Made by a program: the position numbers and the translations under genes
Notes under the pieces: generated by a model
What the model saw: only the letters and a program-made list of their open reading frames with translations
Database searches by the model: none
What the model was told of the DNA's origin: nothing
Shown here: piece by piece, positions 10,954-32,386 of the stretch
How positions within the stretch are numbered: the first letter of the stretch is position 1
Layout of the letters: every line of letters begins with the position of its first letter
From: an uncultured bacterium
GTDB taxonomy: Bacteria > CAIJMQ01
DNA length: 64,000 nt
Assembly (NCBI GenBank): GCA_903821905.1
Contig: CAIJMQ010000121.1
Coordinates: 695 to 64,694, forward strand
Direction of reading: 5' to 3'

Positions 10954-10971
10954 AATTTATGTCCTCAATAA

Positions 10972-13084: not shown

Positions 13085-13121
13085 AGTAATTTCACTTCAT
13101 TGAATTAATTGTAATTACTTT

Positions 13122-15128
13122 TTATTTTTCCAAATACCACGTTTCCGGATAATACGGCAAACTCCATCTGCAATCCCATCCCCAATAACCGCTTTTGGGC
13201 ACATTATGTAACTTATTACTTACAATTAGAGGATGAGGAGCAATTCCAACCGTTCCTATTGTCCAAACATTCTCTGCATTTGAACGCAGTATTTTTTTCC
13301 CTAATTCTATGCGTTTTTGCTCATCAAAAGTTGTAATCATCTCCATCCACCAACTATACAGTTCTTTAATCACGGGGGGCGGTTCTTCACCTTTATCCCC
13401 ATTGGTTAAAAACCACCTTGTCCAACTACTCCACATGCCCGTCTCCCAGTTTAGATTCATTGGTACAAACCAGTAAGGTTGAGAGGGAAAAAGTATGTCT
13501 GTGCACCGGTCAGCATGCCATAGCGTCATATTCATAAGAGAACCTGTAGCTCTACTATTTACAATATTATATTGTTGAGCTCCGGAAATTTCTCTTAAAG
13601 CTATATCAATACCTATATTCTTCCAATACTCAACAACGAGTTCCATAGTCAAACCTTTAGGTGTCTCCATGGGAGTCCATTCAAGTGTAATATCAAGCGG
13701 TTTACCATTTGGACGTTCCCTCATATCGTCCCCATTTCTATCAATTACTCCCATCTCATCCAAAAGTTCAGAAGCCCTCTTGGGATCATATTCAGCATAG
13801 GCTTTAGCAAAATCCTCTTCATAGAACTCACTGGTAGGGAGAACTGTTGTCTGCCTAGGAATTCCGTGACCGTAATAAATAATCTGGTTAATCTCTTCTC
13901 TATTAATTGCGAGTGATAACGCCCTGCGGAATCGTGAGTCCCAAAACATTTCACGCAGTTCTTTATCGGGAGAATTAAAGTTGAATTGTATAGCAACATC
14001 TGTTCCCATAACACTACGCCACATATAAGTTTTATAGTTTCCTTTCTTTTCATGTAATTTAAATAGAGGAATATCCGATATTTGAGTTTGTTGTCCTGCA
14101 AAAGTAGCCTGACCTGTAGCCGCTTTTGCAGTCATCATGTCCTCGTTTTGCACAAAATGTATTTCTATCCTGTCAATGTAAGGAAGTTGATTACCTGCAG
14201 GGTCAATCTTAGGATAATAAGGATTGCGTTCTGCTATTAGAAGGGTTGGCGTCTTTTTTACTACGATAAATGGCTGCATGGATGGACATTTAACTTCCGG
14301 CTCATCAAGTTTAGCCATAAAATTATAATATTGAGTCCACTCATAAAAACCACGTTTTTTTACTTCTTTCATTAGCTCTTCTCTAGGAACAAAATCAGGA
14401 TGATAATTTTTCAAGTGATGAAAGGGCGGCGAAAACCCATCGGTAGAATTTTGTTGTGCCAGAAAATTAATGATATAAGGGTTAGGAACTGCTGAATGCA
14501 AAGCAACCGTATAATCGTCTATTTTTTCGAACTTCATTAGTTCTCCACCCATCTTCCAATTCCTGGAAATTGTTACTGTCTGCTCTTTATTTTGCAATAC
14601 ATGGTCATAATAGAACATAATGTCATCTGCCGTATATGGATAACCATCCGACCATTTCATCCCTTCCCTCAAATGTAGAATCAACGTCTTACCATCGTCT
14701 TTAAATTCCCACCCTTTGGCAAGGTTTGCCTGTATGCCTTTGACTTCCGGGTCCATAATAAGCAGCATCCCTGGAGGATTCAATAGTCCACCTTCTCCAA
14801 ATCCGCCAGTTGAGAAAACAACAGCTGTACCACCATATTGTCCTATTCTTTCACACGGTTCTACTACGATAGGGTCTTTAGGAAGTCTCTTTTCTACAGG
14901 TGGCAGTTTTCCGCTTTTAACTGCTTCATCCAACATTGGAGATTGATGAAACTTTGTAATACCAAGTTCGGAGGCGGTTTTTGGGTCATGGAACCAGCTT
15001 TCAGGCCAAGTATCTTTAGGTATAACTTGCCCTTGTACAAATTGAGAGGTAAAAAGAAAAGCAAATATTGCAAAAAATGTTGTTATCTTGGCCCGACTAT
15101 TAATAATAGACCTGTATATTGAATACAT
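13122..15128 (-). CDS. oppA: Extracellular solute-binding protein, family 5 (peptide/nickel type), unusually long at 668 aa
   Basis: Signal peptide, then the SBP_bac_5-like stretch DGKTLILHLREGMKWSDGYPYTADDIMFYYDHV. It is the first gene of the ABC operon. Substrate is unknown. Confidence 0.7.
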   Translation of the reverse strand: MYSIYRSIINSRAKITTFFAIFAFLFTSQFVQGQVIPKDTWPESWFHDPKTASELGITKFHQSPMLDEAVKSGKLPPVEKRLPKDPIVVEPCERIGQYGGTAVVFSTGGFGEGGLLNPPGMLLIMDPEVKGIQANLAKGWEFKDDGKTLILHLREGMKWSDGYPYTADDIMFYYDHVLQNKEQTVTISRNWKMGGELMKFEKIDDYTVALHSAVPNPYIINFLAQQNSTDGFSPPFHHLKNYHPDFVPREELMKEVKKRGFYEWTQYYNFMAKLDEPEVKCPSMQPFIVVKKTPTLLIAERNPYYPKIDPAGNQLPYIDRIEIHFVQNEDMMTAKAATGQATFAGQQTQISDIPLFKLHEKKGNYKTYMWRSVMGTDVAIQFNFNSPDKELREMFWDSRFRRALSLAINREEINQIIYYGHGIPRQTTVLPTSEFYEEDFAKAYAEYDPKRASELLDEMGVIDRNGDDMRERPNGKPLDITLEWTPMETPKGLTMELVVEYWKNIGIDIALREISGAQQYNIVNSRATGSLMNMTLWHADRCTDILFPSQPYWFVPMNLNWETGMWSSWTRWFLTNGDKGEEPPPVIKELYSWWMEMITTFDEQKRIELGKKILRSNAENVWTIGTVGIAPHPLIVSNKLHNVPKSGYWGWDCRWSLPYYPETWYLEK

Positions 15129-18025: not shown

Positions 18026-18062
18026 TTACACAATTAAATATAAATAACGGAGGTTAAGACAC

Positions 18063-18434
18063 GTGAAAGCAAAGGAATTGAAGATATTTAAAGCAATACT
18101 TACAAAAGAAAGAGACAAAACATCTAAAGGATTAGATGAAAAAGAAAAAAATAGCATCGGAAAATCTCTTAAAGATTCATCCGGTGAAGTTTCTTCATAT
18201 AAAGTTCATATGGCAGACCTTGCTTCAGACAATGCCGAAGAAGATACTTCTCTTGACCTTTTATCTTCAGAGGAAAAACTTCTTAAACAGATACAAAAAG
18301 GATTAAAAAGAATAGAGGAAAAAGCTTATGGAAAGTGCACCAAATGCGGTCAAGATATCAGTATGAAAAGATTAAAAGCTATCCCCTATGCAGAATTATG
18401 TCACATATGTCAAGAGAAAGAGGAGCAAGGATAA
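18063..18434 (+). CDS. DksA/TraR-family C4-type zinc-finger protein
   Basis: 123 aa. GTG start preceded by GGAGG (18049..18053, 9-nt spacing). Coiled-coil N-terminal part and zinc finger CTKCGQDI...CHICQ. The position between ileS and lspA is a common arrangement. Confidence 0.75.
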   Translation: MKAKELKIFKAILTKERDKTSKGLDEKEKNSIGKSLKDSSGEVSSYKVHMADLASDNAEEDTSLDLLSSEEKLLKQIQKGLKRIEEKAYGKCTKCGQDISMKRLKAIPYAELCHICQEKEEQG

Positions 18435-18880
18435 CCGCCGTATTAATTTTAGTTTTGGACCAAATTTTAAAATTCCTTCTCTATAATAAAAATTTGATAA
18501 AGGAAGAATCCGCTATAATTAAGTGGTTGCTTTATATCGTTCCGGCATCTCATAACCCCGGCATAGCATTCGGTTTCTTTAGGAATCACGGTAATTTATT
18601 CATAATTCCAGCATCCATAGCTGTTTTATTTATATTTTTCATATATTTGCAGACGAGTACACAAAAAACTCTTTTTAGATGGGGACTCCTGTTAATCTTA
18701 GCAGGGGCAATAAGCAATCTTATAGATAGAATTATTTACGGTTCTGTGATAGATTATCTACTGCTTAATAAATTCCCCTACTCTTTTAACATTGCTGATT
18801 CATCTATACTGACAGGAGTGGGGCTGATAATAATAAAACTTATGAAAGATTCAAAAATACAAAAAGAAAAAAATATTTAA
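18398..18880 (+). CDS. lspA: Lipoprotein signal peptidase II
   Basis: Motifs NPGIAFGFF and FNIADSSI with four predicted TM segments. The track ORF starts at 18335, inside the upstream gene. I prefer ATG 18398 or 18407 (MSHMSRERGARITAVLILVLDQ...). The exact start is uncertain. Confidence 0.85.
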   Translation: MSHMSRERGARITAVLILVLDQILKFLLYNKNLIKEESAIIKWLLYIVPASHNPGIAFGFFRNHGNLFIIPASIAVLFIFFIYLQTSTQKTLFRWGLLLILAGAISNLIDRIIYGSVIDYLLLNKFPYSFNIADSSILTGVGLIIIKLMKDSKIQKEKNI

Positions 18881-18886
18881 TCTAAA

Positions 18887-19675
18887 ATGCATCCTATACT
18901 TTTTAGAATCGGTTCATTGGAAGTTTATTCTTATGGTGTTTTATTAGTAATAGCTTTCTATATAAGTTTATATTTTTTAACCACAGAAGCAAAAAGGAAA
19001 AAAATAGACACGCAAACAATATTAGACATTGCGCTTGTAGCGATTATATCGGGAATCCTTGGAGGAAAACTCGCTTATATTATTTTAAACCTTCAGCTTT
19101 ATATTCAAGAACCTTTTGATATAAATTTATGGCGTGGCGGTTTTATATTTAACGGTGGATTTTTTCTATCAATATTAACAGTCTTCATCTATGCAAAGAA
19201 GAAAAAATTGCCTTTTTTATTCATTATAGATTTATTTATCCCTTACGCTGCTTTAGGAGAAGCAATAGGCAGGATTGGCTGCTTCCTGAACGGTTGTTGT
19301 TACGGTAAACCAACAAAACTGCCGTGGGGACAAGTATTTACCCTGGACTCGCCGGCCGGTTTTCGCTACGGAGCCTTGCCGTTACAACCCACACAATTAT
19401 ATTCTTCATTTTTTTTATTCATCCTTTTCTTGATACTCAAAGAAACAAGAGACCACCAGAAATTTACAGGACAGACATTCCTCTTGTATTTGATTTTTTA
19501 TCCCACCTTCAGATTCTTTCTGGATTTCTTGAGGGGCGATAGATTGGGGCCATTTTTCTACAACTTAACACTCTTTCAGATAATATGTATTGGAATAGTT
19601 ATGATTGCTTTAGCGATTTTTACTTTCAAAAAGAGAAACAACCACTCAATACCCACCAACCTCACTAACCGATAG
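18887..19675 (+). CDS. lgt: Prolipoprotein diacylglyceryl transferase
   Basis: 262 aa, multi-TM. Has the signature GRIGCFLNGCCYGKPT and QPTQLYSS. Confidence 0.9.
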   Translation: MHPILFRIGSLEVYSYGVLLVIAFYISLYFLTTEAKRKKIDTQTILDIALVAIISGILGGKLAYIILNLQLYIQEPFDINLWRGGFIFNGGFFLSILTVFIYAKKKKLPFLFIIDLFIPYAALGEAIGRIGCFLNGCCYGKPTKLPWGQVFTLDSPAGFRYGALPLQPTQLYSSFFLFILFLILKETRDHQKFTGQTFLLYLIFYPTFRFFLDFLRGDRLGPFFYNLTLFQIICIGIVMIALAIFTFKKRNNHSIPTNLTNR

Positions 19676-19678
19676 TCA

Positions 19679-22186
19679 CTAATCCATTAAATCCACAATC
19701 TTAACTAAAGGTTTCAGAGACCATCTTACTACGGTCTTAAGACGAGGATGTTCTGATATAAAAGAAGCAATTCTTGGACCTACTTTGTAATATGTTCCAA
19801 CAAATATCTTTCCTAAAGAATTAGTCAAAAGATAATCATCTCTAAACTCAGATAACACCCTAACCTCTCTTGCCATAGGTGTTCCGTAACACGCCGTGGC
19901 TATGAAACAACCTGACAGTGAACCGGCACCACCGCCGCCGCCGCCACCACCACCACTACCATCACCGCCACTGCCGTCTCCTGTATCGCCCTCTGCCATC
20001 GTAGTAATCATACAAGGCGAAGAATAATCCGTATCAATACCGAAAGTATCTACAGCTGTTACCCAGTAATAATAAGTGGTCGCAGGAGTAAGAGTACTAA
20101 TATCGTAAAAATAATTATTCGTTATAACCGCACCGTTAACTTTTTCTTTTATTCCTGTTAAGGAAGTGCTCCTGTAAACGTTATATCCTGCCAATACAGA
20201 ACTTACTACGGAATTCCACCTTAGGGACACATATGTTCGTCCTGCTGTGGCTGTAAGACCGGTAGGAACGCTAATAAGAGAGAACAGAGCTGTATCTTCT
20301 ACGTCAGCTGGATTACCTGTTCCATCATCAGCATCATGATAAGTCACGGTTATGATATCATTATGATGAACCTGAAGTTTTCCATCTGCTGCAGCAGTCC
20401 CTACTTCCAAATTGATTGAACCTGTAAAAATACCGGTAGAATTACCTGTTTCGGTCAGGGTTTTAACTTCAGCAACAGCTTCTGTAGTAGATGTAAATTT
20501 CACAGTAGTAGTATCGGGACCACCTGTTGTATTCAAATCACCATCCAAAACAGTAACATTGACCACGCCACCAGCAGAGTAAGAATCTCTGTCAAGCCAG
20601 ACTGAACCAGCACCATTACGGGATAGTGAAACAGCCCATGATGGATTTGTTGTACTTGTATCTCCGGCATTCATTATAATTAACACTACATTGTCATAAG
20701 TATCGTAAGCTAAATCTACATATCCATCCTTGTGAGCGTCCAAAGAGAATGGATGGTCAGTACGTATTCCGGCTTTCTCGGTCACTAAGTTCACCGAGTA
20801 ATCCGTGGTGTTATCAAGTCCATTAAAATAGACCCAGTAATTCGCAACTGCAGGGTCTAATGCAATGGTAACGTAATCCGTAGCCCATTTGTCCATCCAC
20901 GCATCATAGTTGACATTAGTGCTGTCTATTGTAAATGGAATTCCGTCTGTAACTGCATCATATTGATACTCAAGCCATACTCCATCAAAAGTTGTTCCTG
21001 TAAGTTTAGCTCTATAATCAGCTCCGTCAGTATACATATCCTCCAAAAAGAAATTAGCCTCCGTGAATACATTGAATTCGTCTATAATGCTGGAACCATA
21101 CCCTCCTAACACAGTGTTTATTGCTGTAAGTCCATCGGTTGTCTGACATTGCTCCCAAATTTCTTTGATTATAGCATCTCCGCCTCCGCTGAAATCTTCT
21201 GATAATCTCTTGGCAAAAATGAAGTTCCCGTATTCGTGTCCTCCATCAAATGTTTCTAAACCATAACTGTCGCTGAATTGAAACCAATACGGTAAGTAGT
21301 TATAGTTATCATTTACAGCCGGCCAAACAACATCTTCCATATAAGTAGATGTTGTTTCCATCCACCAGACTTCTTCGTTTGCATCATAACTAAATTGAAC
21401 TGCATGGAAGAACTCGTGAGCTGCTGTGACCTTCGCTGCTCCATCAGCAGGAATAGGGTCATCATTTGGCGGCGCCCAACTATAACTCTTATTTACCGCA
21501 ATATAACTGTAGGAAGGGGTTGCAGGAGATTGCTCAGGGCACGTGTATCCATATAATCCAGTACCCAAGTCATAAATATAGACATCATATTTTCCATCCC
21601 CGCCATTGTTGGATGCAGCCAAATCGCTTGGCGGCGCATTATATCCCAAATTGGTCACTTCCTCAGTATAAGCAGTTTCAAAATAGCTGGATATTTTTGT
21701 GGCATAGGCAAGTGTAACGGCATTTGCTCCTGAGGTGTTGTAGTGTACTATGAAATGTGCAGAAGGGAAAGTTGAAGGGAAAGTGTCAACAATGCTGCCC
21801 TCACATATTAAACCATCATCCGGCCTTAGAAGAATATTACATTGCAGAATATCCTGTGTTTCTTGACTTAATTTATTCCAGTTCTTTTTTATCTCCAAGA
21901 TTGTCGGCGTGCCGCTTTTTCTAAACTTCGCATCCTCGGCAGATAACACATATTTCGTGCCGGATAACTTTTCCGGTTTAAACACCGCCCACGCCTTGTT
22001 TAATATGTATTCGTCAATCGTTATTTTTTGGGCTTTATAATCCGCCTGAATTCTCTCTACGGCACCAACCTTATTCCGGCTTTTAAGTGTTTCCGCTCCG
22101 GTGGGGGCAACTACTGCAAACATTGAAAACAATACTGTTAAAACCAACGCTATGCTTAAAACTTTTTTCTTATTTATTCTTTCCAT
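19679..22186 (-). CDS. Secreted putative zinc metalloprotease (HExxH) with beta-rich/FN3-like regions, a Gly-rich linker and a C-terminal CFIATACYG domain
   Basis: 835 aa. Signal peptide (VLFSMFAVVAPTGAET). AAHEFFHAVQFSYDANEEVWWMETT is HExxH followed by downstream Glu residues, which is gluzincin-like. FN3-like stretch LTATAGRTYVSLRWNS...YNVYRS...TTYYYWVTAVD. Linker GDGSGGDGSGGGGGGGGGAGSLSG, then CFIATACYGTPMAREVRVLSEFRDDYLLTN... Confidence 0.65.
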   Translation of the reverse strand: MERINKKKVLSIALVLTVLFSMFAVVAPTGAETLKSRNKVGAVERIQADYKAQKITIDEYILNKAWAVFKPEKLSGTKYVLSAEDAKFRKSGTPTILEIKKNWNKLSQETQDILQCNILLRPDDGLICEGSIVDTFPSTFPSAHFIVHYNTSGANAVTLAYATKISSYFETAYTEEVTNLGYNAPPSDLAASNNGGDGKYDVYIYDLGTGLYGYTCPEQSPATPSYSYIAVNKSYSWAPPNDDPIPADGAAKVTAAHEFFHAVQFSYDANEEVWWMETTSTYMEDVVWPAVNDNYNYLPYWFQFSDSYGLETFDGGHEYGNFIFAKRLSEDFSGGGDAIIKEIWEQCQTTDGLTAINTVLGGYGSSIIDEFNVFTEANFFLEDMYTDGADYRAKLTGTTFDGVWLEYQYDAVTDGIPFTIDSTNVNYDAWMDKWATDYVTIALDPAVANYWVYFNGLDNTTDYSVNLVTEKAGIRTDHPFSLDAHKDGYVDLAYDTYDNVVLIIMNAGDTSTTNPSWAVSLSRNGAGSVWLDRDSYSAGGVVNVTVLDGDLNTTGGPDTTTVKFTSTTEAVAEVKTLTETGNSTGIFTGSINLEVGTAAADGKLQVHHNDIITVTYHDADDGTGNPADVEDTALFSLISVPTGLTATAGRTYVSLRWNSVVSSVLAGYNVYRSTSLTGIKEKVNGAVITNNYFYDISTLTPATTYYYWVTAVDTFGIDTDYSSPCMITTMAEGDTGDGSGGDGSGGGGGGGGGAGSLSGCFIATACYGTPMAREVRVLSEFRDDYLLTNSLGKIFVGTYYKVGPRIASFISEHPRLKTVVRWSLKPLVKIVDLMD
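19745..19917. repeat. Dispersed repeat copy 1 (coding for the CFIATACYG C-terminal domain)
   Basis: Hand alignment to 23082..23254 gives 18 mismatches in ~173 nt (~90% identity). The rest of the two genes is unrelated. Confidence 0.85.
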
Positions 22187-22191
22187 AATTT

Positions 22192-22959
22192 TTACCTCGG
22201 TCCGGCAGGAACAACCTGCTCATATTTTGTTCTATTAATTAAATTTGGACTTACCTCTCCTTTATTTTCTACCTTTACGGAATAATGCGAGATGATAATA
22301 TCTTGCGGTGAAGGAATCCTGGGATATGAATTTACCCGTGTTGCCGTATAACAATCCAATAAATAATAAGAATTCTCTTTTTTTATTTCCAGACGGGTAA
22401 AATCCTCCGGTTTAATATTATATTTCTCTTTTGCCTCATCTGTCCATAATCCCAAATGTCTTTTTGTAAATATCTCCTCATCCTGTGCAGAAGAAGATAA
22501 CCCATATAATTTCAGATATATTTCAAATAAATTAATAACGTCTCTGTCTTTCTCCGGGCTGATGTTTTTCCCGTAATTTTCCAAAAATTTATTGAAATCT
22601 TCGGGAGATAAAAAATAAATCTTTTCGGAAGTGATTAAAATACAAAAATCGGGATTTATTCTAACAAGCCAATGTTCAACAGGAATAGACGGATATTTAT
22701 AACGGTATCCTATTTGATATTTCTTGTTCCAATCTTCCCCATATTTTTTATTTAAAGCAAATTTTGCGGTTTCAGCAGAGTCATTAATATTATAAGGATT
22801 GGACAAAGAATCGAAATTACTTGTTGTGACAGACCCCTTTACATCCGGGACTGCACTGCTTTTGCTTGAACATCCCGCCAAACAACCTACTCCCATGAAT
22901 ATTATTATCCCTATGATGCAATTTTTAATAGCACAGTTTAATATCTTCCTTTGAAGCAT
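22192..22959 (-). CDS. Lipoprotein of unknown function
   Basis: 255 aa. Signal sequence ending in the lipobox LAGC/SS (GVGCLAGCSSKS). No recognisable domain. It lies between the two CFIATACYG-domain genes. Confidence 0.6.
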   Translation of the reverse strand: MLQRKILNCAIKNCIIGIIIFMGVGCLAGCSSKSSAVPDVKGSVTTSNFDSLSNPYNINDSAETAKFALNKKYGEDWNKKYQIGYRYKYPSIPVEHWLVRINPDFCILITSEKIYFLSPEDFNKFLENYGKNISPEKDRDVINLFEIYLKLYGLSSSAQDEEIFTKRHLGLWTDEAKEKYNIKPEDFTRLEIKKENSYYLLDCYTATRVNSYPRIPSPQDIIISHYSVKVENKGEVSPNLINRTKYEQVVPAGPR

Positions 22960-22994
22960 TTTTAACTTTACCGGAAAAAAGGGGTGGTTCTATT

Positions 22995-25900
22995 TTAGTC
23001 ATTCTTTTCTCGGGAAACCACCAACTTTTCCGAAAAATACACTATCGGTTTCAACCCTGCTCTTACAAATTCTTTAAGTAAAGGATGTTCTGATATAAAA
23101 GAAGCAATTCTTGGACTTACTTTGTAATATGTTCCGACAAATATTTTCCCCAACGAATTAGTTATCAAATACTCATCTCTAAACTCGGATAACACTCTAA
23201 CCTCTTTCGCCATAGGTGTTCCGTAACACGCCGTGGCTATGAAACAGCCGGATAGCTTGCCAACTCTACCGCCGCCGCCACCATTGGTGCCGGTGTCAGT
23301 GCCATCTCCGCCGCCATCGCTAGTTCCACCTCCGCCTTCATCTTCCCCTGCCCCGGTATATGCCGGGGTTCCAAGCCAGGCAAGAATCGCAGTCATAACT
23401 CCGCTTCTGATGTGCTGATCGGAAATTGCTTCAAAACCCCAAGGTAAAAACACACTGGCACCCCGTCCCTGATAATAAGCTGTTCCTGCGGTTCCGAAGA
23501 AAGGCGTATCTCCTATACTACCTTCTATAGTATCAGGTCTTCCTCCGCCGGAAAAATCGTATTCAAATATCTTTCTTACAATAGGAGTATCGGTTTCCGG
23601 TTCAGCATCAACAAATAAAAATTGGTTCTGGGCACCGTAAGGTCCTGCAATATCAATACCGTAATTATCGTCTATTACAGGATTTCCAGAAATACTCTTT
23701 AGTTGTGTTAAATTTCCATATCCTAATGAAGAATAAACGTCGCTAATATGCATATAGCCGGTTAGAAACGTATTCAGTATCGAACTGGTATCATTCTTTC
23801 TTTCACACCAATATGCATTTTCTGATCTACCTGCACAACCCAAATCCAAGAGGATACCTTGACCAGATAAGAACAGCCGACCTGCATGATTATCCAGATA
23901 ATCTTCTAAAAGAGCTTGTTCCGGTCCAGTAAGCGTCTCTGTCATCCATATCGGGGTATCAGGAATATCATCATCATAAAAATAGGGACGCCAGTATCCG
24001 TTATAATCACCGGTCAGCCATATAACTTTATCATAATTATCCAGAAGGCCATTGTAGATTTCACCGTTCATTAAAGCATCGCCAGCATCTGTACCACCCC
24101 AAGCATCATCTTTTCCGGGATAGTGTGTCAGAGTATCATCAAAATCTACGTGCCAAATATCATAGGATTGCCCCAAATCATCAAGCGTCTTCAGATACCA
24201 GTCCTCATAACCATAAACAATATTACTTGGTACCGCAGAAGTAATATCAATCATAGCATTAAAATAATATGAAATAAGAGGATAACCGAAATCATCATCT
24301 ACAACTAAAATACCGGTATTAGTAGGAGTAAATTCATTCACTTCCTGAACATAAATCCAGCTTTCTTTTTCCCACCAGGTGCCCCAGTTAGAGGCAAGAT
24401 TATCATATCCCGGCTGTTCGACCTTTACAAAATAATATCCGGGGACAGTATTTAAAGTAGAGAAAGTATAATCTGCAGGTGAAGCAGGTGCAGGAAAATC
24501 TATTCCTATATCTCTTCTTATATCCATCCTCGTTATTTTTACCGGCGGAATTGAAGAGCCTACCGGTCTTCCAGGTGTTGTTATACCTACAGTAGTGACT
24601 GCAGAGCCGCCGGTCGGTATTTCATCTACTCCTATATCGTGTGATTCGTATTGAGGCAACTTAGTCCTTAAATTACTAAGAGCTAAACTTGGCGCTGAAG
24701 TCTGTGTTTCTATCGGTGTAAGTTGAGGATATGGAATCGGCAAAGCAGGGTCTCCGAATAATGTATATTCCCAAACTGTTTTCTGGCTTATGAAATGAGT
24801 CATATCGTTATTTTCTATAAAAGAATTAATAGGGCCTTGTGCTAATCCCCCAGGCACAGTCGGGGAACCGTAAACCAAATCGCCTATGTATTTGGGGGCA
24901 TTATTGAAACTTCTCATCGTATAGCTCAACAACTCATCCATATCAAAAAGTCTATCCTGATATAACACACCGTTATCGAAGAAAGGAATAATTCCTTGCC
25001 AGGCGGAACTAGTTAAACCGATATATGCTATACCTCCGCCTGTGGGAGATTCAACCACCGCTTCTCCAAAGGAAGGAGTGTTTCTGTCAAATCCTCCACT
25101 GCCACTGTTTCCATGACTGTACATACCTGCATTAGAAACCACAATCGGTATCTTGGAATCTGATGAAGTGTAGCCCAAAACATCGTCTCTATCTATGCGG
25201 CTGCCATCAAAGATTAAAGTAGTATCAGTTCCGTATCCCAATTCAAAAAGAAGACCGCAATCGGTATCATTAAGATAAGGAGCCACTGAAATGTCATTAA
25301 AATCATTACCCGCTACACCATCATTCCAATTTGTATGTCTAAGTTTCGTAATGTTGTTACCTTCAAAAAAACCTTGATTGGTAATATCAGCAAGGACAAA
25401 CTCATCCCAGAAAGCAAATACGCTCGGGTGAGAATCCCCTCCTGCAGTTACAACTTTTCTGAACCAATTAGACCATGCATTAGGAACCGCAACAGCGGTA
25501 AGGTAATTGTTACATTTAGTAAATATAGCTTGTGCCTCGACTAAACCGTTATCGTGTATCTCGTATCCGTCACCAGGTATAGGATGTGTAGTATCCGAAA
25601 GATCTTCGGCTTCCAAACCAACAGCAGACGGATCACCCAAAACCAGAAGACAGGTATCCGTATTATCTAAAATTTGGTAAGTAGCACCAATAGGAGCTGC
25701 AGTACCAGTGCCACCAGCAGTCGCAGGGGGATTGCCATCAGAAACTATCCACAATTCATCACCTACCCATCCACTAGCAACCCATGTTTTAGTACTATCA
25801 CATACATCACACTCATCGAAATTATAAGGGTTAAGACCTGTATCAGGTATAGCAGTAATCTCCGTAACGGTTCCGCTATCTTCAACAGGGAGAAGGTCAT

Positions 25901-26675
25901 GAACGGGTATTCTCCCGACTCTCAAGTTCGGTACCCAGTCTATTCCACCACCAGTACTACCACCATAATCAGGCGACGCATAGAAAAAATCGGTGGGAAA
26001 CCAAGTGCCATCGCCGAAAGGATATCCGGGATACGCGCTAAAATTCATCCATACATACCAGCTTTCCGGGACACCGTTGAAAGTCATAGCTCCACCGCTA
26101 CCGGCACCGGTTTCACCCAAGAGAAGCAGATATAGAAATTTGGGATGATTAATGCCGCCGTTATTAAAATCCCAGCTGTTCAGGGGTATAAAAGCACCTG
26201 TAGCATCCTGAAGTATATTAAAAGCATATACATAATCGTCTATGCCGTTTGTTTGAGTTCCATCGGGTAAACCTTCCGTTTTTAGTTGAAGCAACCCTCT
26301 TAATAATTTAACAATACAGAGATTGGGAAGGGGAGTCATTCCGGGAGGAGGATAATCGAACCCTGTAGGAATTAATGTAGGAGTAGCGGGAACAGGCGGT
26401 GGGTCTGCAGGAGAAGGTTCGAGTACACCCGAAGGCAAGTTATCGTAAGCGGCAACTATATTCTCTACTGTAACATAAGCTCCGTACATTGGTTTTGCTT
26501 GACCTACGTCTCCAGCATTTTGATGCATTGTAAGAAAACTTTGGGCTACTGTTTCAAATTTTGCGGACGTTATAATCAAAAGTTCATAGTCATAGGCTTT
26601 AACGATAGTAGAAAAAGAAAATAGAATAAGTAAACCCAAAGAAAATTTTATTAACAAAAATCTATTTTTCGTCAT
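22995..26675 (-). CDS. Large secreted peptidase-C25 (gingipain)-like protein, probably non-catalytic, with a C-terminal CFIATACYG domain
   Basis: 1226 aa. Signal peptide then YELLIITSAKFETVAQSF and RVGRIPVHD, both C25-like. The region LFELGYGTDTTL...IPIVVSNAGMYSHG...SFGEAVVESPTGGGIAYIGLTSSAW aligns by eye to the gingipain motifs YTGHGSETAW...PFIFDVACVNGDF...CFAEAL...GTVAIIAST, with His to Tyr and Cys to Gly changes. C-terminus is GGGGGRVGKLSGCFIATACYGTPMAKEVRVLSEFRDEYLITN... Confidence 0.6.
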   Translation of the reverse strand: MTKNRFLLIKFSLGLLILFSFSTIVKAYDYELLIITSAKFETVAQSFLTMHQNAGDVGQAKPMYGAYVTVENIVAAYDNLPSGVLEPSPADPPPVPATPTLIPTGFDYPPPGMTPLPNLCIVKLLRGLLQLKTEGLPDGTQTNGIDDYVYAFNILQDATGAFIPLNSWDFNNGGINHPKFLYLLLLGETGAGSGGAMTFNGVPESWYVWMNFSAYPGYPFGDGTWFPTDFFYASPDYGGSTGGGIDWVPNLRVGRIPVHDLLPVEDSGTVTEITAIPDTGLNPYNFDECDVCDSTKTWVASGWVGDELWIVSDGNPPATAGGTGTAAPIGATYQILDNTDTCLLVLGDPSAVGLEAEDLSDTTHPIPGDGYEIHDNGLVEAQAIFTKCNNYLTAVAVPNAWSNWFRKVVTAGGDSHPSVFAFWDEFVLADITNQGFFEGNNITKLRHTNWNDGVAGNDFNDISVAPYLNDTDCGLLFELGYGTDTTLIFDGSRIDRDDVLGYTSSDSKIPIVVSNAGMYSHGNSGSGGFDRNTPSFGEAVVESPTGGGIAYIGLTSSAWQGIIPFFDNGVLYQDRLFDMDELLSYTMRSFNNAPKYIGDLVYGSPTVPGGLAQGPINSFIENNDMTHFISQKTVWEYTLFGDPALPIPYPQLTPIETQTSAPSLALSNLRTKLPQYESHDIGVDEIPTGGSAVTTVGITTPGRPVGSSIPPVKITRMDIRRDIGIDFPAPASPADYTFSTLNTVPGYYFVKVEQPGYDNLASNWGTWWEKESWIYVQEVNEFTPTNTGILVVDDDFGYPLISYYFNAMIDITSAVPSNIVYGYEDWYLKTLDDLGQSYDIWHVDFDDTLTHYPGKDDAWGGTDAGDALMNGEIYNGLLDNYDKVIWLTGDYNGYWRPYFYDDDIPDTPIWMTETLTGPEQALLEDYLDNHAGRLFLSGQGILLDLGCAGRSENAYWCERKNDTSSILNTFLTGYMHISDVYSSLGYGNLTQLKSISGNPVIDDNYGIDIAGPYGAQNQFLFVDAEPETDTPIVRKIFEYDFSGGGRPDTIEGSIGDTPFFGTAGTAYYQGRGASVFLPWGFEAISDQHIRSGVMTAILAWLGTPAYTGAGEDEGGGGTSDGGGDGTDTGTNGGGGGRVGKLSGCFIATACYGTPMAKEVRVLSEFRDEYLITNSLGKIFVGTYYKVSPRIASFISEHPLLKEFVRAGLKPIVYFSEKLVVSREKND
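23082..23254. repeat. Dispersed repeat copy 2 (coding for the CFIATACYG C-terminal domain)
   Basis: See copy 1 (19745..19917). About 90% nucleotide identity and 54 of 59 identical residues at the protein level. Confidence 0.85.
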
Positions 26676-27418
26676 TTTTTATTCTCTCCACGACTCTTGG
26701 TGGATTGATAGTTGACTGTTATTTCCGCATCGGTAATAAGTATTGCGCGGTTTGAATTAGGGATATACTGCATAGGGAAAAATTTGATGAATACATATCG
26801 GTTATTGTTATCTTGTCCAGTAGAATAGGAAACTAAATTGCCAGGGAAGAAAGATTCTGAGTCACATGTCTTGCATTTGTTATAACTCTTATTTTCGTTT
26901 TTCCCGGTTGTGGTTTGTTTTCCGCCAGAAGTTTTAATTTGTTTTTCAGTATCGGCAGTTTGTTTTACTTTCTGCGTTTGTGTAACAGGCATAGGATTAG
27001 CAACAATATTCAATTTGTTCAAAATAGGTCTGTAAGAAACGCTGCTGACGCTTACTCCCGAAACTTCGCTGTTTATAGGTAAAGTGACTACGAATGACTT
27101 GAAAGGAAGCATTGGCTCGCCCGGATTGCCGTAAGGTTTTAAACCTTCTACCCTCACATAATCTTTGCCTTTTACATTATTAAGTGAAGTTTGAGCTGTA
27201 TCCAAGCTGAAATGCAGTATTTCTGTTTGTCCTCCTATACTGCGGACACTGCCTTCTGCGGATTTGGAAGTTAAAACGCCCGTGCCCTCCATACTGGATA
27301 TTACAGGGCCAAAAAATAGTGTTTTTGGGGGATTATTTTCAGCAAGAATGTAAGAACCGGCAGAAAGGAAAAGGAGAATTACCGTACAACCCAATAAGAA
27401 CAATTTTTTATTTTTCAC
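26672..27418 (-). CDS. Secreted protein resembling the N-terminal (pro)domain of C25-family peptidases, encoded as a separate ORF
   Basis: 248 aa. GTG start (27418..27416) with AAGGA ~10 nt upstream, and its own signal peptide. VRVEGLKPYGNPGEPMLPFKSFVVTLP and the C-terminal FFPMQYIPNSNRAILITDAEITVNY match what normally precedes the C25 catalytic domain. The stop overlaps the start of the next ORF (ATGA). Confidence 0.55.
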   Translation of the reverse strand: MKNKKLFLLGCTVILLFLSAGSYILAENNPPKTLFFGPVISSMEGTGVLTSKSAEGSVRSIGGQTEILHFSLDTAQTSLNNVKGKDYVRVEGLKPYGNPGEPMLPFKSFVVTLPINSEVSGVSVSSVSYRPILNKLNIVANPMPVTQTQKVKQTADTEKQIKTSGGKQTTTGKNENKSYNKCKTCDSESFFPGNLVSYSTGQDNNNRYVFIKFFPMQYIPNSNRAILITDAEITVNYQSTKSRGENKK

Positions 27419-27485
27419 TATTCTATATCCTTTTTGGTAAAGCCGTTAATGAATTTTAACTATTTTTAAATTTACAAGACTGAAG

Positions 27486-27514
27486 ATTTTAGAACTAAAA
27501 GTCCATTTTGTCAA
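27486..27514 (-). promoter_or_regulatory. Near-consensus sigma70-type promoter for the four-gene secreted-protein operon
   Basis: Minus strand reads TTGACA (27514..27509), a 17-nt spacer, then TAAAAT (27491..27486), ~65 nt upstream of the GTG start at 27418. Confidence 0.6.
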
Positions 27515-27771: not shown

Positions 27772-28290
27772 TTACTTCTTCTCCCATCTCGAAGCTGTGA
27801 AAGTAGCTTCAAGATATGAGCTATCCTTTGGAGAATTTATCTGTATTTCCTTTATCTTCAGATTATAAGGAGAATTTTCAAGAGTAAAAAGATAATTGAC
27901 GAGGTTCTGCATAGTGAAGTTTTTCATTTTAACTTCTACGCTTACTTCTTGGGAATCTTCCTTTTCTTTTACAGAAGAAGGGACAGATTTAATAGAAGAG
28001 ATGTTTTCGGATAATCCTTTACTTTTTGCTATTCTTTCTACTAATGAAAAAATACTCTCGCCTTCTTTAGATAAAGTTTCATCAGATGAATATTCTTTTT
28101 TAACGCTTAAGTATTCTGTTTTAAGTGTTTCCATTTCCCTTACTTCTTGCTCTTTTTTAGGTATTGCAGTTTTTAAAACTTTTATACGATTAAATGTGGG
28201 GAGTACGAAAAATATCGAATACAGCAGAATAAATACAATACCCTCTGCTAAAAAAACTAATAGTTTTCTATTTCTTAAGTAATCTTTCAT
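27772..28290 (-). CDS. gspM: T2SS GspM / PilO-like bitopic inner-membrane protein (module A)
   Basis: 172 aa. Short N-terminus, a single TM (LLVFLAEGIVFILLYSIFFVL), a coiled-coil and a periplasmic domain. It is the last gene of a G-H-I-J-K-L-M ordered set, with ATGA overlap to the L-like gene. Confidence 0.6.
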   Translation of the reverse strand: MKDYLRNRKLLVFLAEGIVFILLYSIFFVLPTFNRIKVLKTAIPKKEQEVREMETLKTEYLSVKKEYSSDETLSKEGESIFSLVERIAKSKGLSENISSIKSVPSSVKEKEDSQEVSVEVKMKNFTMQNLVNYLFTLENSPYNLKIKEIQINSPKDSSYLEATFTASRWEKK

Positions 28291-29720
28291 TTTTCACTTA
28301 TTTTTTTCCCAGACACAACATCGGGACGGACAGCGTTAACTTTCAATTTGAACGTCACACCTTTATCAGTCCTTTGAATTTCAACATCTATACCTGAAAA
28401 AAGTGGTAAATTTCCAAAAGTCTCTTTTATTTTATCAATATCTGCAGAAGATGAAGCACTACCAGAAATTGTTATATTGTCATCTTTTAATTTGAAGGAA
28501 TCCAGTTCTATCTGTAGGTTTTTATCTATATTCTGAGATATTACCCTTAAGGCTTCAAGTGGGCTTAAAAATTCTGATTTTGACTGAATTGCACTATTTT
28601 TAAGACTGTTGATTCTGGATTTCATCTGAAGAAGCGGGGTTCTTGTATCCGTAGCTTCAGGAAAAGTTTCTCTAAAAATATTTTCTACCCGGGAACTTAG
28701 CAAGTTAAATCTTTTTTCGTAGATACTCCTTTCAAACTGAAGCCTGAAACTGAGTATAATTAATACAAGAGTTACAAGAAAAAAGCTAAATCGTATTCCT
28801 TTCCTTTCCTTTTCCTTAAGAACTGATGGATAGAAATTTATTGAATGTGGTCTTAAGCTTCCATAACTGGCATAAAGTATTTCCGGGGTAAAATTTAAAT
28901 CTCCTTGCTCTACAGGTAACGCAGTATTAAGCTCTACAGATTTTACAGTAATATTAAAATTTTTAGTCAACCAATCACATGTTTTCGTTTGTTCTTCTAG
29001 TGCCTGCAGACCAGAAAAGTAAATTTTTCCGAGCCCGCTTTCAAAAAACTCAGAACCTTGGGAAAGTAAAACAGTGCTGATTTCTCTTTTAAGTTCTGAC
29101 TTCTCACTTATAAGGTTTTTTCTCCCGATGGGAATCTCCCTCAAATCTGTAAGTTGCCTATTCTTAAGTATAGAGAAAATATATGTTGAGTTCTCCCCTA
29201 TATATAACCATAATATGTTTTCCTTTATTTGAACATGAGATGCAAAAAGGTTAACAAGAGTAAGCGGGGTAAGATAGATCTCGTTACATGCTAATTCTGC
29301 AGAATTTATCAATTCTATCTGTTCATTCAAAATATCCTCTGGGATAACGAAAGTCATAACTTCCAGATTATTATTTTTTGCATGAACAGGATAAAAAAAT
29401 ACTTTTGTATTCTCCACAGGAATAGGAATATGCGGTTCTACGGCAAATCGTATGCTCTCCCTGATTTTGGATATTCTTCTATAAGGGAATGCGATTTTCC
29501 TTATATAAACAGATGACATCGGCAAAGAACAAATAGCTTGTACTGATACTGCTTTGTTATCTGAAACAAATTTTTTAATAAATTCTACTGCCTTGTCTTT
29601 ATTCCCGGCTTCTATTTCATATTCCTTATAATCTTTTATAAAAACCTTATCTTTCCCGATATGGAAAAACAGGAGTTTTAATTTGTTCTTATCTTTTTGA
29701 AAGGAAAGTAATTTCTTCAT
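28287..29720 (-). CDS. gspL: T2SS GspL-like protein (PilM-like cytoplasmic domain + TM + PilN-like periplasmic domain) (module A)
   Basis: 477 aa. ~315-aa cytoplasmic part, a single TM (FSFFLVTLVLIILSF) and a ~140-aa periplasmic part. Its position between the K-like and M-like genes supports the call. Confidence 0.6.
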   Translation of the reverse strand: MKKLLSFQKDKNKLKLLFFHIGKDKVFIKDYKEYEIEAGNKDKAVEFIKKFVSDNKAVSVQAICSLPMSSVYIRKIAFPYRRISKIRESIRFAVEPHIPIPVENTKVFFYPVHAKNNNLEVMTFVIPEDILNEQIELINSAELACNEIYLTPLTLVNLFASHVQIKENILWLYIGENSTYIFSILKNRQLTDLREIPIGRKNLISEKSELKREISTVLLSQGSEFFESGLGKIYFSGLQALEEQTKTCDWLTKNFNITVKSVELNTALPVEQGDLNFTPEILYASYGSLRPHSINFYPSVLKEKERKGIRFSFFLVTLVLIILSFRLQFERSIYEKRFNLLSSRVENIFRETFPEATDTRTPLLQMKSRINSLKNSAIQSKSEFLSPLEALRVISQNIDKNLQIELDSFKLKDDNITISGSASSSADIDKIKETFGNLPLFSGIDVEIQRTDKGVTFKLKVNAVRPDVVSGKKISEK

Positions 29721-29763
29721 TTTGATTTGGGATACAACGGTAGAATATAGAATTCATTATTCA

Positions 29764-30822
29764 TCAGTTTTCTTTCCAAAATTTCACTTTAACATCGGAC
29801 TGGTTTCTCTCTACAATCGCGATCACTTTTTTTTCTATTTTACCAACTTTAGTTTGTGCTGTGATAGTAAAAATATTGCTTTTAACATCAAAAAGTCCTG
29901 CTCCTGATATTTTCCCAACCACATCTTCAGGGAAAAATTCTTTAAGCTCTGACAGTTCGTAAAAAGGACTACCAATTCTATATTCCATTATATCAGTAAT
30001 TATAGCATCATCTATAATTTCAACTGTTTCTGTTCCCTTATCTCCAGAAGAAGAAATACAAGCTTGAATTGTAGATTTAAGTACTTCTTTGCCGGCAGTA
30101 TTGATATTTATTTTCCCATTGGTAAAAACAGTTATAAAATTTACCAACCCCGTATCACCGTTATAATTTTCTTTAGTTATACCCTTTATCATCATGACTT
30201 CTTCAACCGTATCAAGAGGAGCGTTCTTGCAAGGATATGGAAGAGGTAATTCTGCATAATAATCACTTTCAGCTCCTTTATTTTCACCAACTGTCACAGA
30301 TGAAAGTACGGTAACTTCATCATCAGCGTCTATCCAATCTATGATAGCGGGGACAATCGAGTATTCTAAGCCGATGTTATCGCAAAGCTCAAACATCTGC
30401 TCAATCCTTAAAGTTTTTCTTTCATTTCTTGCATTAAGATAATTCAAGTTTATCTTCCCGCTTTCGTCTCCTATATTTATTTTTACAATTCCGTCATCAA
30501 AGGTCAATTCCCCCTGTTTAGCCCAATCCTCTCCTAACCCGTCAATTTTCAAATCCTCGTCATTTTTAAGCACTGCAATACCATAATTTATTCCGCCTTT
30601 AGCTAAAGCAGAAGCTTTAAGAGAATCAATGGAATTTTGCAGAAGAGAAATCTCCTGATTCATTTTGGTGGATAAATTAATCGTTAAAGCACTTAAGACA
30701 GCCAGCATAATCAATGTAAAAATAAGTACCATTCCTTTTCTGCAGGATTGGGAACCGAGAATTACAGGTTGAATATTATGATTTTTAGTATTCTGACTTC
30801 TAATTTTGGATTTGTTACTCAT
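29764..30822 (-). CDS. gspK: T2SS minor pseudopilin GspK (module A)
   Basis: 352 aa. N-terminus RKG/MVLIFTLIMLAVLSAL is a pilin-like hydrophobic helix without Glu+5, typical of GspK. Also GKINLNYLN and the C-terminal helix-hairpin-helix GKININTAGKEVLKS, and FTITAQTKVG. Confidence 0.8.
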   Translation of the reverse strand: MSNKSKIRSQNTKNHNIQPVILGSQSCRKGMVLIFTLIMLAVLSALTINLSTKMNQEISLLQNSIDSLKASALAKGGINYGIAVLKNDEDLKIDGLGEDWAKQGELTFDDGIVKINIGDESGKINLNYLNARNERKTLRIEQMFELCDNIGLEYSIVPAIIDWIDADDEVTVLSSVTVGENKGAESDYYAELPLPYPCKNAPLDTVEEVMMIKGITKENYNGDTGLVNFITVFTNGKININTAGKEVLKSTIQACISSSGDKGTETVEIIDDAIITDIMEYRIGSPFYELSELKEFFPEDVVGKISGAGLFDVKSNIFTITAQTKVGKIEKKVIAIVERNQSDVKVKFWKEN

Positions 30823-30827
30823 AGGAT

Positions 30828-31412
30828 TTATATTCCCGTTGGGATATAGATTATTGTTGTAAATTTTTCTTTGTGTAATGAAGTTAATGTAATTCTGACA
30901 ATTTGCAGCTTTTGCCCTTCCTTTATAGAATCATACCAATTGTGCCCGTCTGAATATTTGAAACTAAAATCCTTTAAATCTTCGCTCCAAACATATGATT
31001 TAAAGATTACATTTTCTTCCAACGAGAAATTTATTAGAGGTTCTTCTTCTCTTGTAAGTAAATTTTGACCCTCATCATTGGTAATAAATTTATAAGTAAT
31101 TTTCATTAAACATGAAAAAGGGAAATATATAGACCCTGCTGTGGTATAGAAACTAAAGGTTTTTTCATCTCCTTCAAATGATTTTGTATCAGAAATAGAA
31201 TAAATTGAAGATATCTCATTATCCATTCTATTAAAGATATTTCTTGCAACGTAGTAATCTTCTTCCTTTGTGTCCCATTTTTCTAATGTATTCATAGTTA
31301 AAGAGTAAGTGGAAATAATTACCAAAAATATAAGGCTTGAAATTGCTAAAGCAATGAGAACTTCAAGGAGAGTAAAGCCTGAATAAATACTTCCTTTTTT
31401 TTGTTTCTTCAT
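30828..31412 (-). CDS. gspJ: T2SS minor pseudopilin GspJ-like (module A)
   Basis: 194 aa. Prepilin motif MKKQKKGSIYSG/FTLLEVLIALAISS. Size and position fit GspJ. Confidence 0.7.
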   Translation of the reverse strand: MKKQKKGSIYSGFTLLEVLIALAISSLIFLVIISTYSLTMNTLEKWDTKEEDYYVARNIFNRMDNEISSIYSISDTKSFEGDEKTFSFYTTAGSIYFPFSCLMKITYKFITNDEGQNLLTREEEPLINFSLEENVIFKSYVWSEDLKDFSFKYSDGHNWYDSIKEGQKLQIVRITLTSLHKEKFTTIIYIPTGI

Positions 31413-31413
31413 A

Positions 31414-31818
31414 TTATTTCTTTATCCCAGCCTGCTGAATATTTGCGGATAGGCAATAAGTATTAAGGACAATTTTTGTGTTTTCTGGGCCAGAGATAAC
31501 TATCTTTACGCTTTTTAATCCATCAATTTCCGTATCTTCTACTTTTCTCATCCAAGAGAATTCAGGATAGTCTGAAAAATCACCATCTTCGTCTCCTGTA
31601 ATAAGATTTTCTTGTGTAAAAGTATTGGTGAGAATTTCGTTCCCTAAAAATATAGCAGTCGTATAATAGCTTGAATGCATCCCTTCCCTTAAGGACAAGA
31701 GCTGCGAATGAATTAAAACAACCAGTGTAATGCTTACTATGGCAAGAGAAATTAGCACTTCAAGGAGAGTAAAACCTTTATTTTTTATTAAAAACCTAAG
31801 ATTGAATTTTCGTCTCAT
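31414..31818 (-). CDS. gspI: T2SS minor pseudopilin GspI-like (module A)
   Basis: 134 aa. Prepilin motif ...LIKNKG/FTLLEVLISLAIVS. Size and position fit GspI. Confidence 0.7.
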   Translation of the reverse strand: MRRKFNLRFLIKNKGFTLLEVLISLAIVSITLVVLIHSQLLSLREGMHSSYYTTAIFLGNEILTNTFTQENLITGDEDGDFSDYPEFSWMRKVEDTEIDGLKSVKIVISGPENTKIVLNTYCLSANIQQAGIKK

Positions 31819-32386
31819 ATTCTTGCAGATATCCTAATTCAATATGACTCTGACCTGTTAAAGGATTTACAAAAAGCGTGTAGGATTTTTCTTTCTCATC
31901 AATAAAATGTATGGTAACAGGTCCAACAAAACCGGAGGGATGAAAAATTAAAGGCGTTATTCCTTCAGTAATTTTATTACCTTCAGAATTTATTATATCC
32001 TGAACCTTCAAATAAGAGCTTATTCTTCTTGTACTAAGAATATTCTCCTCTTTATCTTCCCCTTCTAGTAAAGATATAGCCTTTAACTCATTTTTATCCA
32101 AATCAAATAGTAGGAGAATTTCTTCATTTTTGACTTGTGCTAAATTATATAGATATTTTATAGTCTGGGATATATTTTCAATATCTCTTTGTCTATCTAG
32201 TTTTGATTTAGGAATTTTAAGATTCGGCAAGACAAGAGCAAGGACCATACCAATAACTAAAATAACAAGGGACAATTCAAGAAGGGTAAAACCATTATTA
32301 CCTATTAAAGATTTTTTTTTGATATTATTACTCCAGATCCCAGGAATAGATATCCGCATCGAAGCCTTCCCCGCCCTCCTTACCAT
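31796..32386 (-). CDS. gspH: T2SS minor pseudopilin GspH-like (module A)
   Basis: Prepilin motif ...SLIGNNG/FTLLELSLVILVIG. The track start at 32386 lies deep inside gspG. ATG 32359 (MRISIPGIW...) is more likely, but the start remains uncertain. Confidence 0.65.
   Translation of the reverse strand: MVRRAGKASMRISIPGIWSNNIKKKSLIGNNGFTLLELSLVILVIGMVLALVLPNLKIPKSKLDRQRDIENISQTIKYLYNLAQVKNEEILLLFDLDKNELKAISLLEGEDKEENILSTRRISSYLKVQDIINSEGNKITEGITPLIFHPSGFVGPVTIHFIDEKEKSYTLFVNPLTGQSHIELGYLQEYETKIQS

Follow-up and report, generated by a model that had tools for sequence, protein, structure and literature searches.

Tripartite sorting signals of surface proteins combine a short motif, a transmembrane (TM) helix directly after it, and an Arg cluster (bioRxiv 10.1101/2023.06.07.544157), and the substrates of two such systems, MYXO-CTERM/myxosortase and GlyGly-CTERM/rhombosortase, reach the cell surface and stay there via the type II secretion system (T2SS) (PMC11980579, PMC6219818, PMC13393428). 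Here we compare these and other C-terminal systems with a locus in a 64,000-nucleotide stretch of DNA from an uncultured bacterium (contig CAIJMQ010000121.1; this whole stretch is hereafter the window). Two nearby genes on its minus strand, encoding an HExxH metalloprotease of 835 amino acids (aa) (19679..22186) and a C25-like peptidase of 1226 aa (22995..26675), end in near-identical copies of a module that belongs to the CFI-box-CTERM family. The explanation toward which we lean, with modest confidence, is that the CFI-box is a C-terminal envelope tag, that the window copies, which lack a TM helix, may be docked, and that the copies have been exchanged.

The CFI-box resembles the MYXO-CTERM and GlyGly-CTERM signals in its C-terminal position on secreted hydrolases, in the Gly-rich region before it, and in a link to the T2SS and surface retention (PMC11980579, PMC6219818), and it has an invariant Cys in common with MYXO-CTERM. 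However, those signals span 20 to 40 residues, have the TM helix and Arg residues directly after the motif, and are each served by a known intramembrane protease, whereas the CFI-box is a folded domain of ~70 residues with no cognate enzyme seen nearby. Judged against the tripartite class as a whole (LPXTG, PEP-CTERM, GlyGly-CTERM, and MYXO-CTERM), the family has a short motif, CFIATA.YG, but within a folded 69-residue domain; in the window copies, no TM helix follows the motif directly, and the C-terminal Arg cluster is missing.

The C-terminal domain of the type IX secretion system (T9SS; Por_Secre_tail, TIGR04183) is likewise a folded C-terminal domain, of 70 to 100 residues, and serves for sorting and attachment of C25 peptidases and metalloproteases, among them the gingipains; Bacteroidota C25 peptidases classically carry it. 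This domain is a beta-sandwich, whereas the CFI-box is predicted to be all-helical and has no sequence match to it; searches with NCBIfam and Pfam gave no match to TIGR04183 or PF18962 in either window protein, and the window holds no T9SS genes. Dockerins offer another parallel as small C-terminal modules on many unrelated secreted enzymes and a precedent for docking onto anchored scaffolds. There is no homology between the two, Pfam detected no dockerin (PF00404) in the C-terminal regions of the window proteins, and unlike dockerins, the CFI-box often has a TM anchor of its own, with no cohesin-like partner identified.

The CFI-box family and its TM-less subgroup

Both window modules match NCBIfam NF041770, "CFI-box-CTERM," over the full model (1-69/69), with scores of 93.0 and 92.2 bits against a curated cutoff of 40. 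Copy 1, which starts with CFIATACYG, covers aa 760-828 of the metalloprotease (19703..19909, minus strand), and copy 2 covers aa 1144-1212 of the C25-like peptidase (23040..23246, minus strand). In translation, each copy is preceded by a Gly-rich linker, GDTGDGSGGDGSGGGGGGGGGAGSLSG ahead of copy 1 (19910..19990, minus strand) and a second ahead of copy 2 (23247..23345, minus strand). An earlier reading of this DNA made from the letters alone (the sequence-only reading) could give no accession for the module and overrated its novelty; the CFI-box-CTERM family is already catalogued, and the window proteins are further members, both of which the NCBI pipeline would name "CFI-box-CTERM domain-containing protein." A full-text literature search returned no paper on CFI-box, CFIATAAYG, or NF041770, no Pfam model lies over the module, and the curated NF041770 name reads "domain-containing" rather than "sorting domain." The family has a name, but neither a function nor a partner, structure, or publication came to light by which it would count as a characterized sorting domain with an assigned machinery.

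Nor is the module confined to these two genes. When 1.84 billion representative proteins were searched exhaustively with the profile, clusters being drawn at 50% identity, 26,334 clusters contained a CFI-box at E<=1e-3 and 16,204 did so at the stricter E<=1e-10, almost always with the module at the C terminus, and a scan of one genome per species located at least 578 CFI-box loci. Chloroflexota/Dehalococcoidia dominate among the hosts, which also include Nitrospirota, Desulfobacterota, Gammaproteobacteria, Omnitrophota, Planctomycetia, Ratteibacteria, Aminicenantes, Hydrogenedentota, Armatimonadota, Clostridia, and the archaeon Ca. Ethanoperedens. The statement in the sequence-only reading that the motif occurs in archaea and some candidate phyla is borne out, with Ca. 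Ethanoperedens, Omnitrophota, and Ratteibacteria among the hosts. Passenger domains in 74 members are of surface or secreted types throughout (for example, InlB B-repeats, CBM_X2, subtilase, fn3, PKD, and beta-helix). Six long proteins or loci (P0122, P0123, P0124, P0127, L063, and L080) have an internal CFI-box and TM helix and then an apparent new signal peptide and second body; these look like tandem CFI-box genes fused through read-through or gene-calling errors.

Conservation was assessed in a sample of 342 distinct modules. Residues C1 and T5 are conserved in all of them, and F2, A4, and A6 are conserved in 99%. Across phyla, conservation reaches 90% or more at about 20 module positions, the list at this threshold naming F2, I3, A4, A6, A7, Y8, G9, L19, R20, F22, R23, D24, L27, N30, and G33 in the N-terminal half and V37, Y40, Y41, S44, P45, A48, I51, L57, R62, and L65 in the C-terminal half. 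Stretches upstream of the module are Gly-rich, and a Gly stands immediately before the Cys in 179/342 modules. The window modules conform to NF041770 in their CFIATA.YG start, their LxxFRD and YYxxSP motifs, and their C-terminal position on exported proteins but depart from its norm in lacking a TM helix, in a second Cys at +6, and in having Ser for Arg20 and Arg for Pro46.

One of these departures concerns the TM helix. In 228 of the 342 members, the domain is followed by a hydrophobic helix and an Arg-rich tail (for example, RRRGRGPEYT); the rest end within a few residues. The window modules are followed by tails of 7 residues (KIVDLMD, copy 1) and 14 residues (YFSEKLVVSREKND, copy 2) without a hydrophobic segment, and both lack the Arg-rich cluster that the TM-type majority has at the extreme C terminus. 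Because these tails are short and nonhydrophobic and the genes adjoining the CFI genes start or stop only 3 to 35 nt away, the missing TM helix is genuine and not the product of a frameshift. The absence of a TM helix in the sequence-only reading is thus correct for the window copies but does not extend to the family, two-thirds of whose sampled members have one.

The window copies and their orthologs fall within a TM-less subgroup defined by CFIATACYG, LSxFRD (with Ser for Arg20), and short polar tails. Its members include P0268-P0270 and P0272, from metagenome-assembled genomes (MAGs) annotated as Omnitrophica or Ratteibacteria, as well as P0128, P0131, P0153, and P0173; the hosts are Omnitrophota- and Ratteibacteria-like double-membrane bacteria. 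The two Cys residues singled out in the sequence-only reading fare differently, as the first is present in 342/342 modules, whereas a Cys at +6 occurs in 18/114 TM-less and 0/228 TM-type modules. Extra Cys residues are found in 33/114 TM-less and 15/228 TM-type members. On inspection of the sequences, Ala7-to-Cys and Arg20-to-Ser seem to go together in the window's TM-less subgroup, which suggests that the two positions are near in space or that the chemistry of the subgroup has been altered.

Structure prediction with AlphaFold2 (AF2) gave four helices for window copy 1 (residues 13-17, 24-38, 42-63, and 66-86) at a predicted local distance difference test score (pLDDT) of 78.6. The model of complete P0001, a minimal signal peptide-CFI-TM protein, has pLDDT values above 90 throughout the CFI domain, with helix 4 at residues 100-121 and the TM helix at residues 123-144. 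With one residue between helix 4 and the TM helix, the domain would lie directly on the membrane. TM-bearing members have ~60 residues between the CFI motif and the TM helix. Foldseek searches of the PDB with the two AF2 models returned no match with E<3.9, and the module profile found nothing below E=0.5 among PDB sequences. We also considered intein- or Hedgehog-like autoprocessing at G|CF, which is not supported, as the predicted fold is helical.

Exchange of the module between the two protease genes

A C-terminal module common to two otherwise unrelated proteins had been proposed for this locus, and BLASTP bears this out. The comparison of the 835-aa and 1226-aa proteins gave one significant match, over the C-terminal 75 aa (63/75 identical, 84%; E=2e-36), and all matches outside this region had E>0.1. 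At the DNA level, a recount reproduced exactly the 18 mismatches in 173 nt previously reported between 19745-19917 and 23082-23254, or 90% identity in this 173-nt core, with the mismatches spread across the tract. The full exchanged tract forms a direct repeat of 223 nt (19724..19946 and 23061..23283, no strand assigned; 84% identity, spacing of 3337), the sole direct repeat of at least 40 nt that a repeat search found in 19000-27500. In 30-nt windows, identity is 77-93% over 19740-19919 and drops to 0.63 or less in the flanking windows on both sides. Both copies are full-length and in frame, agree over their 69 codons at 85.5% of amino acids and 83.6% of nucleotides, and are the only CFI-box motif copies that a six-frame motif scan found in the window.

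The history of the module is decoupled from that of the protein body. Compared with its ortholog at locus L085, the body of the HExxH protease shows 76% identity across 1563 nt. The modules of these two orthologs agree at only 64%, whereas the window module matches that of the neighboring C25 gene at 84% (69 codons). This pattern indicates that the module was swapped between the two window genes, either by gene conversion or through replacement of the module, once their lineage had diverged from that of L085, in agreement with the recent domain transfer or gene conversion that had been suggested from the mismatch count. The same tendency is seen in other genomes, where modules of same-genome paralogs are 74-89% identical at the nucleotide level compared to a mean of 57% between loci. 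Such within-genome likeness would be expected if all copies had to fit one shared partner or enzyme.

Probable retention at the cell envelope and competing readings

The main argument for the function of the CFI-box comes from what replaces it on homologous proteases. Of the 119 proteins homologous to the HExxH body, a CFI-box terminates five, namely, the four closest, which are TM-less, and the distant TM-bearing P0343. The others end in a dockerin, in CARDB/PKD domains with a TM helix and RRRR tails, or in Cys-containing motifs with a TM helix; according to precomputed PF00404 annotation, dockerins terminate many of these homologs. Two (P0355, with TIGR04183 at 45 bits, and P0321) carry a T9SS type A sorting domain in the CFI-box position. 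The partial C25 ortholog P0131 also ends in a CFI-box, and a metagenome scan with the C25 body found no homolog. The CFI-box therefore occupies the slot of known anchoring, docking, and sorting modules, and we think that it probably keeps exported proteins at the cell envelope. The docking or sorting role that the sequence-only reading had entertained is plausible.

In the mechanism that we propose, the CFI-box would be a modular C-terminal tag, joined by a Gly-rich linker, through which enzymes and adhesins exported via Sec stay at the envelope. In TM-type members, the last helix of the domain would run into the TM helix with its Arg-rich tail, placing the domain at the external surface of the cytoplasmic membrane. 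The TM-less window proteins would dock onto membrane-anchored CFI-box proteins or onto another receptor, with the conserved Cys possibly fixing the attachment. The module itself was exchanged between the two window genes after the split from their closest sequenced relative. Hints of docking come from P0001, from the TM-CFI-TM protein P0161, from the extra Cys residues of TM-less forms, and from MAG JBATUN, in which TM-less L017 coexists with TM-type L011, L016, and L023. We propose only tentatively that docking, to anchored CFI proteins or some other shared partner and possibly through the Cys, holds the TM-less copies in place.

The T2SS is a candidate export route for the window proteins. 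Immediately upstream of the window CFI genes, on the same strand, lie gspK-L-M. In a Thermodesulfovibrio sp. MAG (L071; PNOC01000015.1, 2452-15174), a CFI gene for an MXAN_6640-type metalloprotease is placed between the gspF and pseudopilin genes of a complete operon, gspC-D-E-F-CFI-pseudopilin-J-K-L-M. Large TM-less CFI genes adjoin gspC-like PDZ genes in Omnitrophota MAGs (L045 and L051) and Planctomycetia MAGs (L049, which additionally has gspD-gspE, and L076), and gspG..K-L-M are downstream of the CFI gene at a Chromatiales locus (L079). For non-Chloroflexi loci, 6/19 with TM-less genes and 1/29 with TM-type genes are T2SS adjacent (Fisher p=0.011), which is an association only; none of the 31 Chloroflexi CFI loci is T2SS adjacent. 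The window proteases may be T2SS cargo, a proposal that we hold with some reserve.

Several observations weigh against the explanation that we favor. HExxH-CFI orthologs at L085, L086, and L088 sit among housekeeping genes and not beside T2SS genes, so that T2SS adjacency is a statistical tendency rather than a fixed feature. The family is moreover abundant in single-membrane Chloroflexota and present in an archaeon, both of which are without a T2SS, and its core role therefore cannot be T2SS targeting. In some cases, modules from different Dehalococcoidia MAGs reach 97% nucleotide identity, meaning that strong purifying selection also contributes to module similarity. Finally, three proteins of ~112-118 aa (P0069, P0093, and P0113) combine an N-terminal zinc ribbon (PF13248 for P0093 and P0113; Elf1 for P0069 according to JGI) with a TM-less CFI-box and have no signal peptide. 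The CFI-box may thus also act in the cytoplasm rather than exclusively as an extracytoplasmic anchor, and these proteins are not well explained by retention or by any of the rival explanations.

A cleavable sorting signal is one of the alternatives that survive best, although we regard it as unlikely. Under this alternative, an enzyme would recognize the domain, attach a group such as a lipid to the invariant Cys, and remove the rest of the module, leaving a lipid-anchored protease that reaches the surface via the T2SS. Such a signal would account for the invariant Cys and for the Gly that precedes it in over half of the modules, and the TM helix and Arg-rich tail of about two-thirds of the sampled members recall tripartite signals. 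MYXO-CTERM and GlyGly-CTERM proteins become surface bound via the T2SS after cleavage (PMC11980579, PMC6219818, PMC13393428), CFI genes tend to adjoin T2SS genes, the HExxH passenger swaps its CFI-box with true sorting signals, and homogenization of modules within a genome also fits coevolution with a single enzyme. But the ~60 structured and conserved residues between the Cys and the TM helix depart from the standard motif-TM-Arg design, the window copies have no TM helix or basic cluster at all, proteins of the P0001 type, with almost no passenger, would be purposeless as mere substrates, and the curated family name avoids the term "sorting domain." A cognate enzyme is also missing from the neighborhoods. 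When ORFs (open reading frames) within 10 kb of the CFI genes at 80 loci were clustered by BLAST and 110 flanking genes were searched with Pfam, no neighbor family apart from the T2SS genes recurred beyond three or four occurrences, no peptidase or sortase-like family recurred, and hence no maturase or protease of the kind that the sequence-only reading had envisaged accompanies CFI genes at these loci. No candidate sorting enzyme was found in the 64-kb window itself.

A broader version of retention, to which we likewise give little weight, would make the CFI-box the recognition or attachment domain of an undescribed anchoring system of bacteria and archaea, in which the Cys would be modified or cross-linked and the TM-less proteins would be surface-tethered T2SS cargo. 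If true, such a system would constitute a further route for retaining T2SS substrates besides N-terminal lipidation, rhombosortase, and myxosortase.

The predicted lipoprotein encoded between the two proteases (255 aa; lipobox LAGC; 22192..22959, minus strand), which the sequence-only reading put forward as a candidate receptor, is a poor one, and we consider it very doubtful that it docks the CFI-box. It would be membrane anchored by virtue of its lipobox, it lies in a tight operon with gaps of 35 and 5 nt to its neighbors, and a homolog with 69% identity is found directly upstream of the closest HExxH-CFI ortholog (L085) in an otherwise unrelated neighborhood. In contrast, tblastn found no homolog at the 80 other CFI loci, which span many phyla, an exact look-up and two metagenome scans returned nothing, and the lipoprotein is missing beside three orthologs whose CFI boxes are likewise TM-less (P0269, P0270, and L019). 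A family of 26,334 clusters cannot hinge on a lineage-restricted orphan, which in this case had no significant Pfam or NCBIfam match. As the lipoprotein is paired with the closest ortholog only, it belongs with the HExxH protease rather than serving as a general CFI partner. It could be an inhibitor, chaperone, activator, or local receptor of the protease, and because the pairing tracks the protease, a metalloprotease inhibitor, chaperone, or activator is at least as likely as a CFI-box receptor.

Slightly less probable still is a self-processing or folding-helper role, in which the CFI-box would be an intramolecular chaperone or would cleave itself through a Gly|Cys N-to-S acyl shift and be released after export. 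C-terminal self-cleaving chaperone domains are known from phage tail spikes, the invariant Cys is a nucleophile placed right after small residues, and the near invariance of R20, R23, D24, N30, Y40, Y41, and S44 goes beyond what a passive anchor needs. However, the small helical fold that is predicted does not resemble Hint, intein, or S74 domains, and the window subgroup has kept the domain with Ser in place of R20.

That the two modules look alike through misassembly into a chimeric contig or by chance is a negligible possibility, since the point in its favor, identical stretches of at most 38 nt that short k-mers could span, is set against a BLASTP match at E=2e-36, 18 differences spread over 173 nt, full-length in-frame copies, CFI modules on orthologs of both window proteins, and an identical 835-aa product assembled independently on ENA contig ERZ1426817. 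With this product on a second contig and the longest identical stretch between the copies at 38 nt, chimeric assembly is very unlikely.

Genomic setting and meaning for the family

The two proteases belong to a compact minus-strand array whose gene order is pseudopilins-gspK-gspL-gspM, a 353-nt gap, C25 propeptide, C25-CFI, lipoprotein, and HExxH-CFI; from the propeptide ORF through the HExxH-CFI gene, successive gaps measure -4, 35, and 5 nt. Signal-peptide-like N termini were recognized on both proteases by eye only, and both proteins are taken to be exported. The body of the 835-aa protein scores 193.6 bits against NF045524 (cutoff of 140), the MXAN_6640 family of HExxH metalloproteases, which takes its name from a Myxococcus protein, and carries fn3 as well; its layout from the N terminus is signal peptide, HExxH domain, Ig/fn3 domains, Gly-rich linker, and CFI-box. 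The 1226-aa protein matches Pfam Peptidase_C25 at 72.9 bits. Upstream of it, overlapping by 4 nt, is a 248-aa ORF (26672..27418, minus strand) with a C25 propeptide domain (Pfam Propeptide_C25, 24 bits; cutoff of 22). This ORF appears by eye to have an N-terminal signal peptide of its own. Classical gingipain-type C25 peptidases have the propeptide within the same chain; the separate ORF might act in trans, as a prodomain or an inhibitor, or might be one part of a split gene. The type II secretion genes gspM, gspL, and gspK and the pseudopilin genes (Pfam T2SSM, GspL_C, T2SSK_1st, and N_methyl) occupy 27772..32386 (minus strand), and the 353-nt gap holds the best promoter-like site of the region (11/12; 27514-27486, minus strand).

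On the plus strand, ileS, a dksA-like zinc finger gene, lspA (Peptidase_A8), and lgt (LGT) run from 15254 to 19675 and converge on the HExxH-CFI gene, the stops of lgt (19675) and the HExxH gene (19679) being 3 nt apart. At locus L045, lnt is two genes downstream of a TM-less CFI gene. The ileS-lspA linkage is a common housekeeping arrangement, and the occurrence of lipoprotein maturation genes beside CFI genes is probably a coincidence. The adjacency of lgt and lspA had prompted us to consider LSGC, present in both window copies, as a lipobox, which we rejected because the context is wrong and the family as a whole shows no conservation of Leu at -3; LSGC lies ~760 and ~1140 residues from the N termini, after the Gly linker and with no hydrophobic signal-peptide core before it.

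A few kilobases from the proteases is a complete oligopeptide ABC transporter operon (SBP_bac_5, two permeases, and two ATPases; 8844-15128, minus strand), which is consistent with a lifestyle of extracellular protein breakdown. A second cluster resembling a T2SS or type IV pilus system (37943-63591, minus strand) contains a gspG-like gene, three pseudopilins, a fused PilM/PilN, a short secretin, a 1301-aa GspK-like protein with a lamin-tail domain, two tetratricopeptide repeat (TPR) proteins, two unassigned ORFs, and a giant ORF of 3569 aa (NHL, DUF2341, Laminin_G_3, and BNR). A tyrosine recombinase gene (Phage_integrase with a SAM-like N domain; 7981-8859, plus strand) is probably xerC/xerD-like, and no other mobile-element features were seen near it.

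The interest of this locus rests in the size of the family and the question of its mechanism, not in the two window genes. With more than 26,000 clusters in Bacteria and Archaea, the CFI-box is among the larger C-terminal modules of prokaryotic surface proteins, and on one protease family it is interchangeable with dockerin, T9SS, and TM anchors. If its role in retention holds true, the CFI-box would explain how hydrolases and adhesins are displayed in many uncultured lineages, such as Dehalococcoidia, Omnitrophota, and Nitrospirota.

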